Shown here: positions 11,274 through 14,473 of the stretch, piece by piece
Layout of the letters: each line of letters starts with the position of its first letter
How positions within the stretch are numbered: the first letter of the stretch is position 1
Assembly (NCBI GenBank): GCA_044870765.1
Contig: JBIOZG010000023.1
Location: 1 to 14,473, forward strand
Length of the DNA stretch: 14,473 bases
Source: Nitrososphaeraceae archaeon
GTDB taxonomy: Archaea > Thermoproteota > Nitrososphaeria > Nitrososphaerales > Nitrososphaeraceae
Direction: 5' to 3'
The notes under the pieces: model-generated
What the model was told of the DNA's origin: nothing
The model's input: the letters and a program-made list of their open reading frames with translations, nothing else
Database searches by the model: none
Position numbers and translations under genes: made by a program

Positions 11274-11339
11274 TGAATTACTTTGTAGCCGGTTAATGTT
11301 AAGTATTATGGATTAGTTGGCTATGATTTGATTATGAGA

Positions 11340-11726
11340 CTACCTAACAAAAAATTCCTTTCCGTAGGCTATTTCGAATTTCTTTAATATATTGATACAA
11401 CCAGGTTCGACGAACACATTTCTTTTTTCATCTGTGTGGTATGCAATTAAACTATCTTGATTCTTTCCAAATATCGATCTTCCACAAATTACACACCTGT
11501 GGACTTCATCAAACAGGTCTAAGGCTTCGGAACCATAAGCATTTATAATAAATTTACTCCCGTCCATACCTTCAGCTTCAATATAGTAATATTCTATCCC
11601 ATTGTTCATGTAAATTACTTTTTCTGGCAGGAAACTAAATCTACATTTTTTATTTACAAGGTCGTGAACCAGGTTCTTTATGTCGGATGGGGCAACTGGT
11701 TTATGAACTAATTTACTACCACTCAA
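11340..11726 (-). CDS. Hypothetical protein with C-terminal TRASH/YHS-like metal-binding motif
   Basis: C-terminal CVICG...VFVEPGC pattern (CxxC plus a distal Cys after an aromatic residue). The TTG start has a strong Shine-Dalgarno upstream. Confidence 0.65.
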   Translation of the reverse strand: MSGSKLVHKPVAPSDIKNLVHDLVNKKCRFSFLPEKVIYMNNGIEYYYIEAEGMDGSKFIINAYGSEALDLFDEVHRCVICGRSIFGKNQDSLIAYHTDEKRNVFVEPGCINILKKFEIAYGKEFFVR

Positions 11727-11735
11727 TTAAATTAT

Positions 11736-11741
11736 CCTCCC
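11736..11741 (-). promoter_or_regulatory. Shine-Dalgarno GGGAGG for the 11726 TTG start
   Basis: Minus strand reads AAAAGGGAGGATAATTTAA-TTG. Confidence 0.65.
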
Positions 11742-11843
11742 TTTTGAATTTAAGCAAGTCAATCACACTTTATGTTCCGCTCAAATACAGATAAACCAGA
11801 TTAAGCTTGGAATATGAAAATTTTAACTAAATTATAATAACTA

Positions 11844-11889
11844 AGCTTCGGATCTGATGCTTTTTTGTTTGCTTATGATAACCGAAGCT
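11844..11889. other. Intergenic inverted repeat / hairpin
   Basis: AGCTTCGG (11844-11851) and CCGAAGCT (11882-11889) form perfect 8-bp arms, with additional inner ATC/GAT pairing. Confidence 0.5.
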
Positions 11890-11969
11890 AATGATTGTTA
11901 ATATCTTATTTAGAATAACTAACTTCGTAAATCAAAAGAAAAAATAAAAAATATTTTTTCTAAAGTATA

Positions 11970-12443
11970 TTATTTCACGTATTGCTTTTGTGCGGATGTA
12001 TAGAAGTTTGACCATGTATTGGCTAAGTTTGCATTATATTCGGTCACTGTCTCAACTGTTTTACTATACAATTTGATATTCTCCCTACTTGCGTTTAGAC
12101 TATCTATTGCTAATTGATTGGCAGCATCGAACACATGAAATGCTTGAGAGGTGGCTTCGTTGGATTGTTTTCTATATTGTTCTGAATATGGACCTTCCAT
12201 TGGTGTAAAGGAATTTCTTGCAGTATTTCTATACCAGGTTTTTTGAATTGCAAAAGTCCTGTTTATCGTTTCTTTTGTCACTTGAAGGTAATCTTGCTGT
12301 AGATTTGAAATTGATTGTGCGTATTGTGGCTGATATTTTGCAATTTCATCGACCGTTCTTAACATATTTTGCTTGCACGTGTCTAATAATTCGGCGTTTT
12401 CTGCTACATTTTCTCTAGATTTTTCTGTCATTTTCTCTACCAT
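11970..12443 (-). CDS. Hypothetical all-alpha Gln/Asn/Ala/Thr-rich protein (possibly phasin-like)
   Basis: 157 aa of long amphipathic helices (PQYAQSISNLQQDYLQ; NQLAIDSLNASRENIK; NANLANTWSNF). TTTATATA TATA box upstream. Confidence 0.75.
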   Translation of the reverse strand: MVEKMTEKSRENVAENAELLDTCKQNMLRTVDEIAKYQPQYAQSISNLQQDYLQVTKETINRTFAIQKTWYRNTARNSFTPMEGPYSEQYRKQSNEATSQAFHVFDAANQLAIDSLNASRENIKLYSKTVETVTEYNANLANTWSNFYTSAQKQYVK

Positions 12444-12461
12444 TCAATGGCATTAAAAGGG

Positions 12462-12469
12462 TATATAAA
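12462..12469 (-). promoter_or_regulatory. TATA box TTTATATA of the 157-aa gene
   Basis: Consensus archaeal TATA 19-26 nt upstream of ATG 12443, preceded by purine-rich CCAAAGA. Confidence 0.55.
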
Positions 12470-12636
12470 TCTTTGGTAGTCGAAGGGTATTAGCGGTATT
12501 CACTACCATACATATACTATAATAGGAGTATGGAAGATAGAGACAATTCGAAATTATTTATATATTATAAACGGAGAAAAAAGGGTATAAAAATTCAATA
12601 GAAAAATAAACCCCCCACCGGACAATAACTCAGATT

Positions 12637-13326
12637 ATGCAAATAAGCCACTGTAATTTTCCTGAGGGTATTCTTTATGATTTGGATAATTTCATTTGGA
12701 TAAAAAAAGATGACCGGGATGAATCTGTGTTTAGCTTGGGTGCAACATCAATTCTTGCAGCCTTGGCAGGAAAACTAACGAAAATTAAACTTAAAGACAT
12801 TGGCACTATGGTAGAGAAAAACAAAAGTGTAGCATCAATTGAAAGCCTTCGATATTTCGGTATGGTGAGATCACCTGTCAAGGGAAAAATCATTGAAGTT
12901 AATAACACCTTATCTAGCAATCCCAAATCTGTAAACGATTTTCCATATGATGATGGATGGTTTGTAAAGATAAAAACACAATATTCAGATGGAACCAATG
13001 ATTCTGATTTTAATACTGAAAATCTAAAATTCATTAATGATTGTCATGATGAAATTAAAAACCTTATAGACAAGCTTCACATCCGGTGTTTTTCAGCGTT
13101 TCCTGATTATGAGATGTTTGAGATTGGAGTAGAATGTGCAGCAACACTTACAAAGCTGGACGAATTAATTGGCAAAATTGATTTGGGAAACGTAGTTCAT
13201 GTTGTATCTGATGATACCTCTGCGGATCTTGAAATGATAAGATGGTCTGAAGAAAGGGAACAAAGTCTTTTAGAATATAGAAGGGAAGGAACACTTTATC
13301 ATTTTATAGTAAAGAAAATAAAGTAA
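12637..13326 (+). CDS. Fusion of a glycine-cleavage H (GcvH)-like domain lacking the lipoyl Lys with a C-terminal TusA/SirA-like sulfur-carrier domain
   Basis: Residues ~8-113 show P...LY....W, LG.T, IES-L-R, V.SPV.G.IIEVN and P..VN..PY..GWFVKIK (GcvH). Residues ~157-229 show G.EC, G.V.HVVSDD.SA..EM..W and YHFIVKK (TusA fold pattern). Confidence 0.85.
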   Translation: MQISHCNFPEGILYDLDNFIWIKKDDRDESVFSLGATSILAALAGKLTKIKLKDIGTMVEKNKSVASIESLRYFGMVRSPVKGKIIEVNNTLSSNPKSVNDFPYDDGWFVKIKTQYSDGTNDSDFNTENLKFINDCHDEIKNLIDKLHIRCFSAFPDYEMFEIGVECAATLTKLDELIGKIDLGNVVHVVSDDTSADLEMIRWSEEREQSLLEYRREGTLYHFIVKKIK

Positions 13327-13397
13327 AGTAAAAAAATTGAAATGAAAATGACATGGAATTACATGACTAGATTCAAGTCAAATAAAGTGCCATTTGA

Positions 13398-14234
13398 CTA
13401 CTTTTCAATTGGATTGTCTATCATGTTTCCCCATTCTGTCCATGAACCGTCGTAATTTTTGACGTTAGGATATCCTAGGAGATACTTTAGTACAAACCAT
13501 GTATGCGATGATCTTTCACCAATTCTACAATAGGAAATTACTTCTTTATCCGGCGTAATTCCTTTTGCTTGGTAAATCTTTGCTAGCTCATCAGCCGACT
13601 TGAATGTTCCATCCTCATTTACTGCCTGAGCCCACGGAATATTTGCTGCACCTGGAATATGTCCACCCCTTTGAGCATGTTCTGTCGGATATTCTGGAGG
13701 AGCCAATATTTCTCCGGTGAATTCTTTTGGACTTCTGACGTCCACTAACGCCTTACTGCCAAGAGTATCACTCACATACCTTAGAAACACGCGTATGTTG
13801 TTGTCAGGATCAGAACTTTTGAAATTTCCTTTCGGATAAGTAGGCACATCCTTTGTAAGTGCTTTGTCTTCTTCCAGCCATTTTTTCCTTCCTCCATTCA
13901 TCAATTTCATATTCTTGACTCCATAATACGTCAGTGCCCAAAATGCAAACGCAGCAAACCAATTATTAAAATCTCCATAAAGGATTAATGTAGTATCATC
14001 ACTAACTCCTATTCTTTGTAACAAATCCTGGCTTGCTTGCTTGCTCAGAATATTTCTTGCAAGAGGATCGTTAATGTCAACTTTCCAATCTATTAACACT
14101 GATCCTGGTATGTGTCCCAAGACATAGTTTGCAGTAGGATCATAATCTACCTCAGCAATGCGAACTTTGGGATCGTTTAGATGATCTTCGACCCATTTTG
14201 TATCAACTAGAACCTCTGGATGAGAATAATTCAA
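13398..14234 (-). CDS. Tandem-domain rhodanese / thiosulfate sulfurtransferase (CysA/SseA/TtuD-like)
   Basis: HPEVLV.T.WV, GHIPG twice, N.FAAFA.W, GGRKKW, LVDVRSP.EF.G, active-site YCRIGERS and C-terminal YDGSWTEW. TTG start with SD AGGTAGGTG at 14242-14250. Confidence 0.95.
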   Translation of the reverse strand: MNYSHPEVLVDTKWVEDHLNDPKVRIAEVDYDPTANYVLGHIPGSVLIDWKVDINDPLARNILSKQASQDLLQRIGVSDDTTLILYGDFNNWFAAFAFWALTYYGVKNMKLMNGGRKKWLEEDKALTKDVPTYPKGNFKSSDPDNNIRVFLRYVSDTLGSKALVDVRSPKEFTGEILAPPEYPTEHAQRGGHIPGAANIPWAQAVNEDGTFKSADELAKIYQAKGITPDKEVISYCRIGERSSHTWFVLKYLLGYPNVKNYDGSWTEWGNMIDNPIEK

Positions 14235-14344
14235 TTCATAACACCTACCTTAAATTTACTTTTAGCTTATATTAGTTTTTCACGAATAGATACTCGAATA
14301 GTGGTAATATTACTTGAAACTAAAACAATGAAAGTGCTAATTGA

Positions 14345-14473
14345 TTAACCATGATCAGCACCTCTATATCCTATTTTCAATTCCGCATCACCGTCATATT
14401 TTGGCTTGATGGCAAGTTGTCCAGGAGTATATATCAGATGCTCTTTTGTAAATGATGATAATTCATAGTCGTT
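14345..14473 (-). CDS. nuoI: 3' end (5'-partial) of a probable NuoI-like complex I Fe-S subunit
   Basis: Open minus-strand frame reads NDYELSSFTKEHLIYTPGQLAIKPKYDGDAELKIGYRGADHG, then TAA (14347-14345). DYEL....K..LIY resembles the segment after the second ferredoxin motif of NuoI. The Cys motifs would lie outside the window. Confidence 0.6.
   Translation of the reverse strand, partial: NDYELSSFTKEHLIYTPGQLAIKPKYDGDAELKIGYRGADHG

Follow-up and report, generated by a model that had tools for sequence, protein, structure and literature searches.

Two convergent genes, one for a GcvH-like/TusA-like fusion protein and one for a tandem-domain rhodanese, lie side by side in the DNA considered here, a window of 14,473 nucleotides (nt) that is contig C23 of a 2.0-Mb archaeal genome (59 contigs, 96.65% complete). 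The closest homologues carry the name Nitrososphaeraceae, the ammonia-oxidising archaea of soil. The fusion gene occupies positions 12637..13326 on the plus strand (ATG start, TAA stop included) and encodes 229 amino acids (aa). The rhodanese gene, at 13398..14234 on the minus strand (TTG start, TAG stop included), encodes 278 aa with two Pfam Rhodanese stretches. Between the two stops is an A+T-rich spacer of 71 nt (13327..13397). A bacterial-type terminator and promoter scan of 12300-14473 placed no terminator-like site in it and yielded nothing that can be interpreted for an archaeon. An earlier, sequence-only reading of the window had described a 229-aa open reading frame (ORF) ending 71 nt from the stop of a tandem rhodanese with an intact CRIGER loop, and both the coordinates and the loop (residues 236-241) are confirmed. 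As discussed below, the fusion may be a cysteine-based acceptor for sulfane sulfur from this rhodanese.

Profile searches and a predicted structure confirm that the fusion is an H-protein fold joined to a TusA-type fold. The AlphaFold2 model, built on 28 family members, has a mean pLDDT (predicted local distance difference test score) of 91.7 and a pTM (predicted template modelling score) of 0.83, and its sole unconfident part is an eight-residue insertion at 117-124. Residues 6-143 (12652..13065, plus strand), which include a C-terminal helix at 133-147, form the H-protein (GcvH) fold. With VIA-align, this part superimposes on residues 1-128 of the H-protein 3a7l with Z 20.6 and a root-mean-square deviation (rmsd) of 1.6 Å over 128 aligned positions. 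Pfam GCV_H matches residues 21-117 (E 1.9e-25); two NCBIfam GcvH models stay below their cut-offs (79.9 vs 117, and 65.8 vs 115.85). The second domain, residues 152-229 (13090..13323, plus strand), has the order beta-alpha-beta-alpha-beta-beta. Its residues 152-228 superimpose on TusA residues 4-80 of 3lvj_C with Z 14.3 and rmsd 1.5 Å over 77 aligned positions. Foldseek finds both folds from the same model (H-protein, E 1.5e-11; TusA, E 1.2e-5, target-normalised TM-score 0.88), and no solved chain in that search spans both domains (best query-normalised TM-score 0.52).

The TusA assignment required independent evidence because the window protein scores poorly with the Pfam model for that family. 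The hidden Markov model check that the sequence-only reading had proposed holds for GCV_H and fails for TusA (PF01206) on the window protein alone, which reaches 21.4 bits over residues 164-227 where the cut-off is 28.6. At the level of the family the signal is stronger. Pfam TusA is matched at E<=0.01 in 21 of 21 family members, and many homologues have PF01206 in precomputed annotation. A profile of the C-terminal domain (last 90 residues, 21 family members) aligns the fusion's invariant cysteine with Cys19 of LRCPEP in E. coli TusA 1dcj (E 1.7e-9). The same C-terminal profile is matched by hhalign to the canonical TusA encoded elsewhere in the genome (98% probability, E 2.2e-13). The earlier proposal had been made to depend on a C-terminal TusA fold, and that fold is found both in the model (3lvj_C) and in the profile (1dcj).

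A signature of three cysteines runs through the family. A family profile was scanned against 1.84 billion cluster representatives and retrieved 50 proteins at E<=1e-30; of these, 33 are two-domain members (205-330 aa), which together with the window protein give 34 representatives, independent at 50% identity. Conservation was also read from an alignment of 28 sequences, A1, with 25-93% identity. The window protein has cysteines at 6, 136, 151 and 167. Cys6 (codon 12652..12654), the first aligned residue of the H fold and opposite the first residue of E. coli H-protein in the model alignment, is kept in 33/34 representatives and is invariant in A1. Cys151 (13087..13089) lies in the coil 148-157 between the H-domain C-terminal helix and the first TusA strand of the model; it is kept in 33/34 and is invariant in A1 and in a further alignment, A4. 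Cys167 (13135..13137) is the first residue of the helix 167-180 and is found in all 34 representatives as well as throughout A1. The 1dcj profile, hhalign and VIA-align place it opposite TusA Cys19 and the cysteine of the genome's own TusA. Cys136 is not conserved among the 34.

The sequence-only reading had placed Cys151 and Cys167 correctly, the latter as the equivalent of the TusA active-site cysteine, and had overlooked Cys6. It had also cast the H-like domain as a docking module only. This does not hold up well, for the domain carries the near-invariant Cys6 and has Cys151 at its junction with the TusA part; to judge from conservation, the H domain probably does more than dock. Since Cys6 in the H domain and Cys151 at the junction are both near-invariant, a three-cysteine device appears more likely than a single carrier cysteine plus a dock. 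Substitution rates indicate that the fusion gene is under purifying selection: the ratio dN/dS (omega) is 0.08-0.20 against close orthologs with unsaturated dS, and the TusA part is the most constrained.

The residue that carries lipoate in H-proteins is lost. In profile alignments to 1onl and 3a8i, Arg72 (codon 12850..12852), in IESLRYFG, occupies the column of the lipoyl-lysine found in the ESVK of H-proteins. Among the 34 representatives that column holds arginine in 19, lysine in 11 and other residues in 4. It alternates between lysine and arginine even among close relatives, and the next residue is aromatic, unlike in H-proteins. With respect to lipoate INDEPENDENCE, the fusion is the sole GCV_H match in the genome.

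The rest of the genome fits this loss. Searched across the whole genome, GCV_T, GDC-P and LipA gave no match, and neither did DsrE or the CCG (HdrB) domain; positive controls for these absence searches matched in 10-14 of 14 reference genomes per search. The best lipoate ligase candidate scores 22.8 bits with LplA-B_cat, where the cut-off is 27, and none in the genome is above it. The only gene of the BPL/LplA family is a biotin ligase (TIGR00121, 174.7 bits vs a cut-off of 83.1). The earlier statement that the window has no GcvP/T, lipoate ligase or Hdr gene is borne out in the 16 ORFs scanned and extends to the genome (GcvL/Lpd was not searched for), as does the lack of any lipoylation context around Arg72. 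An identity as the H protein of glycine cleavage is rejected on the same residue and the same absences (GCV_T, GDC-P, LipA, lipoate ligase). With its lipoyl-lysine lost, the module would therefore work without lipoate in this organism. The H domain has its nearest free-standing relatives in family f21, as lysine-bearing GcvH-like genes that adjoin genes for LplA-type ligases, and it most likely descends from a lipoylated carrier. In the giant protein P0163 (1391 aa, from a metagenome), three GCV_H domains stand ahead of FAD_binding_4/FAD-oxidase_C, a 4Fe-4S dicluster and two CCG domains; by its domain matches it is a fusion of H-protein folds with an HdrD/GlcD-like oxidoreductase.

Four other sulfur loci were seen in the same genome, on contigs C7 (L040), C32 (L037), C35 (L039) and C24 (L004). 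Between them they hold a sulfite reductase (NIR_SIR) with a tandem rhodanese and a divergent TfuA, a tandem rhodanese with a metallo-beta-lactamase-fold protein, a 420-aa rhodanese/metallo-beta-lactamase fusion, and a canonical TusA (CPEP) whose gene immediately precedes that of a PALP enzyme. The canonical TusA, sulfite reductase and rhodanese/metallo-beta-lactamase loci are not linked to the GcvH-TusA fusion.

The neighbouring enzyme fits, on sequence, a tandem rhodanese of the thiosulfate sulfurtransferase type with its catalytic cysteine only in the C-terminal domain. Its closest solved relative is the T. thermophilus rhodanese 1uar (E 2.5e-110), followed by Mycobacterium proteins of the CysA2/SseA type (3hwi, 3aax, 3hzu), the whole group spanning E 2.5e-110 to 1e-83. 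The protein has a single cysteine, Cys236, in the active-site loop CRIGER of the C-terminal domain (residues 236-241; 13512..13529, minus strand). All six loop residues are invariant in 21 orthologs and paralogs. The N-terminal domain is inactive, with Asp88 in an invariant YGD. CRIGER conforms to the classical rhodanese loop motif CRXGXR, as given in passages of PMC11094781. The 3-mercaptopyruvate sulfurtransferase model PRK11493 scores 136.5, below its cut-off of 250.

The sequence-only reading had allowed that, with convergent genes, the linkage of fusion and rhodanese might be incidental. Judged from gene neighbourhoods it is not, because the pair outlasts control neighbours, recurs in a second arrangement and is lost together. 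Eighty named loci were examined, 74 of them with at least 1000 nt downstream. The rhodanese is adjacent and convergent in 57 of these 74, at spacings from a 4-nt overlap to 310 nt, and lies 3.6-4.4 kb away in another 6 (Nitrosocaldus and one other). The control neighbours are rarer: the 157-aa gene upstream of the fusion in the window is kept in 23/70 loci, ThiDN in 15/56, and the nucleotidyl transferases in 14/46-51.

The second arrangement appears in an even sample of 401 Thermoproteota genomes, in which a rhodanese ortholog was called at E<=1e-60. Counts from this sample are among the matches listed. At least 35 of the 401 genomes have a full-length fusion, and 35 of 35 fusion genomes have a rhodanese ortholog, vs 108 of 401 overall. 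In 26 of the 35 (families f12, f31 and f48) the rhodanese is directly upstream on the same strand, and the spacing in the loci read, from an 11-nt overlap to 65 nt, is operon-like. Of the others, 4 are adjacent and convergent and 1 has the rhodanese 4.4 kb away. The neighbourhood survey that the earlier reading had called for, with a lack of co-occurrence to count against it, thus finds that the fusion keeps a rhodanese beside it across families.

Loss is also shared. In 201 genomes of the window's own family, with thresholds of E<=1e-30 for the fusion and E<=1e-127 for the fusion-type rhodanese, both genes occur in 131, the fusion only in 12, the rhodanese only in 6 and neither in 52. The 52 include a whole genus (g173) in which 0 of 37 genomes has either gene. 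Leaving out four unpublished genomes (G563, G433, G475 and G497) gives 128, 11, 6 and 52 of 197. These genomes are related and not independent, and the counts are given without a statistic.

No third gene common across lineages stands beside the pair in the neighbourhoods of the named and sampled loci, and hence none that would favour tRNA thiolation, cofactor sulfuration or sulfane detoxification, the destinations suggested by the sequence-only reading. The genes upstream of the operon-like loci belong to unrelated, lineage-specific groups. Those downstream include an ABC ATPase, a SIS protein, a tRNA intron endonuclease, PhoU_div, HemD, CofD, a wyosine radical-SAM enzyme and NurA, none of them cross-lineage. 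A Rosetta-stone search for longer proteins that join rhodanese and fusion found none at E<=1e-10 among 8000 candidates, which is weak evidence.

Individual loci show some variety. In part of f12 (L016:17-574(+), L020, L022-L024, L028 and L034) a gene for 112-186 aa with the motifs CPVNCY and C-x2-C-G-x-C precedes the operon on the same strand. The one such protein scanned has no Pfam match; we take it to resemble a ferredoxin of the FixX type. At L136 (G310:C20:149000-158000, family f53) the pair sits within NADH dehydrogenase genes: upstream are a NuoH-like gene and one resembling a 2x[4Fe-4S] ferredoxin, and downstream is a chain-6-like one. Among fusion loci that have no rhodanese neighbour (for example L090, L093, L101, L105 and L106, named as Nitrosopolaris, Nitrososphaera sp. 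and Nitrosopumilales metagenome-assembled genomes, MAGs), a uroporphyrinogen-III synthase gene (HemD) is next downstream on the same strand in 5 of 9 scanned; the others have CofD, the wyosine radical-SAM enzyme (2) or NurA.

A second rhodanese clade has a different partner. In a quick maximum-likelihood tree of 40 rhodaneses, the convergent fusion-linked ones form one clade (SH-aLRT, the Shimodaira-Hasegawa-like approximate likelihood ratio test, 98), and the operon-type rhodaneses of f12 and f31 branch outside it. In a sister clade (SH-aLRT 99) an unrelated ORF of about 103 aa (101-110 aa), with an invariant TCPD at its end, comes after the rhodanese on the same strand. These ORFs lie behind the paralogous tandem rhodanese at L123:2685-2996, L124:2719-3030, L127:934-1239 and L133:1697-2029 on the minus strand, and at L125:3871-4182 and L126:3814-4146 on the plus strand. 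The loci come from family f2 and from two genomes of the window's family, and one complete genome (G377) has both rhodanese-partner systems. Sequence searches of Pfam, NCBIfam and the PDB found no match for the 103-aa protein. Its AlphaFold2 model (pLDDT 87.2) has five strands, a long helix and a flexible cysteine-bearing tail, with no Foldseek match in the PDB better than E 0.06. It is a candidate second type of rhodanese partner. Each rhodanese paralog thus appears to have its own cysteine-bearing partner, which fits a donor-acceptor relationship. Small ORFs behind the rhodanese in f13 and f21 were tried as candidate free TusA-like partners; Pfam TusA gives E 0.0019 for one, and hhalign a probability of 3.7% (E 0.011). 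Two further small ORFs there look spurious.

The fusion architecture is confined to Thermoproteota. Named members come from Nitrososphaeraceae, Nitrosopolaris, Nitrosocaldus, 'Aigarchaeota' (Caldarchaeum, Calditenuaceae), Bathyarchaeia and 'Thermoprotei' MAGs. They are annotated as hypothetical, as GcvH, as TusA-family proteins or, by the Joint Genome Institute (JGI), as 'glycine cleavage system H lipoate-binding protein/TusA-related sulfurtransferase'. The architecture is therefore visible to annotation pipelines yet uncharacterised. The sequence-only reading knew of no characterised protein of this kind; our searches agree, with the JGI automatic annotation naming both domains. No paper on a GcvH-TusA architecture was found in the literature, and it is not mentioned in term-matched passages of a 2018 eLife paper, a 2024 Protein Science paper and a survey of archaeal fusions (PMC11237513), whose supplements may list it. 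Several MAGs have two fusion copies. One MAG has its fusion gene broken up into ORFs of 148 and 70 aa (L050:5804-6511), the matching genome row having one in-frame TGA; this is either a pseudogene or an assembly error.

Near-identical contigs from RNA libraries fall on 11300-14473 of the window, covering the fusion gene in 3 of 4 libraries and the rhodanese in 4 of 4 (four studies). They hint only weakly at transcription of both genes in soil, as such contigs reveal nothing of strand or level and may include carried-over DNA.

These observations can be joined in a mechanism. The fusion is probably a dedicated cysteine-based acceptor and relay of sulfane sulfur from the neighbouring rhodanese, a reading to which we give a probability of about 0.6; we infer every chemical step, as well as the donor, direction and recipient. 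The rhodanese would take the sulfane sulfur of thiosulfate, or of another sulfane donor, onto Cys236. From there the sulfur would pass to the TusA-type carrier cysteine with which helix 1 begins, Cys167. It might then be handed on, or resolved to sulfide, by Cys151 at the domain hinge and Cys6 at the N-terminal end of the H fold. The H domain would be a former lipoyl carrier that has given up its lipoyl-lysine (Arg72). This reading is favoured because the folds, the three conserved cysteines, the coupling to the rhodanese, the co-loss and the known transfer from rhodaneses to TusA point the same way. The proposed transfer from Cys236 to Cys167 is the best-supported step. In passages of PMC11094781, the CPXP motif's cysteine is the residue proven to bind sulfur in TusA proteins, sulfur moves from Rhd_2599 to TusA, and Rhd442 exchanges with TusA. 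The possible roles of Cys151 and Cys6 are suggested by their conservation and their position in the model.

Several points weigh against a dedicated acceptor. The rhodanese is missing in 11 of the 74 named loci and is unlinked, on another contig, in 4 of the 35 sampled fusion genomes (one genus). The fusion stands without the fusion-type rhodanese in the 12 family genomes counted above, of which 7 are under 80% complete. In the window genome and its whole family the two genes are convergent, so they are not co-transcribed there. The fusion partner is not strictly needed, since a rhodanese clade does without it and is paired with a different small protein; in f2 a rhodanese is found in 50 of 56 genomes, with no full-length fusion among the matches listed. 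Within the TusA domain, the weak Pfam score of the window protein is joined by loss of the CPXP motif: the window has CAAT, and of the 34 representatives 5 have proline at +1 and 2 have it at +3. Finally, the three cysteines, together with the mostly conserved His222, could equally form a metal site.

The most serious alternative, possible but clearly less probable, has the fusion as a resolving-thiol acceptor. Cys151 or Cys6 would attack the rhodanese-derived persulfide to release H2S and leave a disulfide, the protein acting as a surrogate for thioredoxin or dihydrolipoate. Rhodanese and fusion would then turn thiosulfate into sulfite and sulfide for assimilation. The presence of three conserved cysteines and not one agrees with this, as does the separate canonical TusA, which would cover ordinary carrier duty, and the sulfite reductase and the PALP enzyme beside that TusA could use both products. 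The ancestry of the H domain also suits it, with free-standing relatives that keep the lysine and adjoin LplA-type ligases. Dihydrolipoate accepts the sulfane sulfur of rhodanese in vitro, according to passages of PMC6067878, which cites Villarejo and Westley 1963, Silver and Kelly 1976 and Cianci 2000. However, no disulfide reductase is linked to the pair in any lineage examined. Sequence alone does not separate such a resolution from onward relay.

A metal or Fe-S protein is a less likely, though real, alternative. At the domain interface, Cys6, Cys151 and Cys167, with His222 or an acidic residue, would bind Zn, Fe or an Fe-S cluster, and the rhodanese would supply sulfide for cluster building, or the site would be structural only. 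Exactly three near-invariant cysteines, from the N-terminus, the hinge and TusA helix 1, and a histidine kept in 26 of 34 representatives are what such a site might need; the pTM of 0.83 indicates a fixed domain arrangement in the model, and the CPXP prolines of carrier TusA proteins are gone. His222 nevertheless gives way to E, Y, N or Q in 7 of the 34 and to a gap in 1, and no Fe-S assembly gene is a conserved neighbour. The position of Cys167 bears the persulfide in all TusA proteins studied, as passages of PMC11094781 have it.

Inherited synteny, with a fusion whose function is unrelated to the rhodanese, is improbable. The genes are convergent throughout the family, some lineages separate them, and related genomes are not independent witnesses, all of which speaks for it. 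Against this, the pair persists where all other neighbours in the window have been lost, stands in a different, operon-like arrangement in distant families, and is lost as a pair in whole genera (g173). A lipoylated LbpA-type protein of sHdr-like sulfur oxidation (sHdr, a heterodisulfide reductase-like system), fused to its TusA, has next to no chance of being right: although LbpA, TusA and rhodaneses cooperate in sHdr systems and AqTusA interacts with AqLbpA (passages of PMC11094781), and although lysine stands at the lipoyl position in 11 of 34 representatives, it is refuted for the window genome by Arg72, in a column that wavers between lysine and arginine and precedes an aromatic residue, and by the absence of CCG/HdrB, DsrE, lipoate ligase and LipA.

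A more speculative extension may also be considered, which we hold possible but clearly less probable. The fusion could be a lipoate-free, all-protein counterpart of the LbpA-TusA couple, in which the Cys6 thiol replaces the dihydrolipoyl arm and sulfur is relayed or resolved from Cys167 to Cys151 to Cys6. The 103-aa 'TCPDD' protein would be a second, independent solution, for the paralogous rhodanese of marine lineages.

Nitrososphaeraceae are among the most abundant soil archaea. To our knowledge their sulfur trafficking is essentially unstudied, and a two-gene module of a rhodanese and a three-cysteine GcvH-TusA protein would offer a concrete, testable entry point to it. The fusion provides a naturally occurring example of a lipoyl-carrier fold put to other use in the absence of lipoate. 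It bears on the origin of LbpA-type sulfur carriers and on the in-vitro use of dihydrolipoate by rhodaneses. If the three-cysteine relay is real, it would be an unrecognised route for thiosulfate or sulfane sulfur into biosynthesis in ammonia-oxidising and related archaea. If the module makes thiosulfate usable, models of the sulfur sources of ammonia oxidisers would change.

The remainder of the window holds less that concerns this module. The 157-aa protein used above as a control is encoded at 11970-12443 on the minus strand, divergent from and upstream of the fusion; it is helical, belongs to no family and is conserved only in the window's genus. In one RNA library its gene shows a greater contig depth than the rest of the stretch, depth not being a measure of expression. 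A 175-aa ORF at 2468-2995 (minus strand) has five matches to RTX calcium-binding nonapeptide repeats (HemolysinCabind, E 8.4e-27), here in an archaeal genome. Scans for tRNAs and for Rfam families found neither in the window.

Among known systems, the tandem rhodaneses of the 1uar and CysA2/SseA type are the group to which the window rhodanese belongs, and none of the solved ones (1uar, 3hwi, 3aax, 3hzu) has been described with a GcvH-TusA partner. Mycobacterial genes of the CysA2/SseA type presumably stand beside a gene for a small SseC protein. YeeD (TsuB) of the YeeE-YeeD thiosulfate uptake complex (8j4c) likewise combines a TusA-fold domain, by fusion or by joint action, with a partner that handles thiosulfate. 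The fold match with the fusion has Z 12.9 with VIA-align (Foldseek E 3.9e-4) and a sequence identity of only 13%; the partner of YeeD is a membrane transporter, and not a rhodanese or an H fold. The pairs Rhd_2599-TusA of Allochromatium vinosum and Rhd442-TusA of Hyphomicrobium denitrificans resemble the module in having a CRXGXR rhodanese genetically tied to a TusA-type carrier (passages of PMC11094781). Those rhodaneses are single-domain proteins that feed Dsr or sHdr sulfur oxidation via DsrE proteins, whereas the window rhodanese is a tandem protein in an ammonia oxidiser without DsrE or Hdr.

With GcvH and LbpA the fusion shares the fold, including the C-terminal helix (Z 20.6), and lysine-bearing free-standing relatives beside LplA-type ligases; LbpA also works with TusA and rhodaneses (passages of PMC11094781). 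Unlike them, it has Arg72 for the lipoyl-lysine, has gained an invariant N-terminal cysteine, and occurs in a genome without matches to a lipoylation enzyme, a glycine-cleavage partner (GcvT/GcvP) or sHdr. With TusA (E. coli YhhP/TusA, 1dcj and 3lvj, and the TusA of sulfur oxidisers) it shares the fold, the cysteine at the N-terminus of helix 1 and the PD and DDP motifs, and the TusA proteins studied receive sulfur from rhodaneses (passages of PMC11094781). It differs in having C-[SA]-x-x for CPXP, an extra invariant cysteine 16 residues upstream and a place behind an H-protein fold, in scoring below the Pfam cut-off in the window, and in sharing its genome with a separate canonical CPEP TusA. 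The components are of known kinds; what appears to be new is that they are fused, that the lipoyl-lysine has gone, that three cysteines mark the family and that it is tightly paired with a single clade of rhodaneses.

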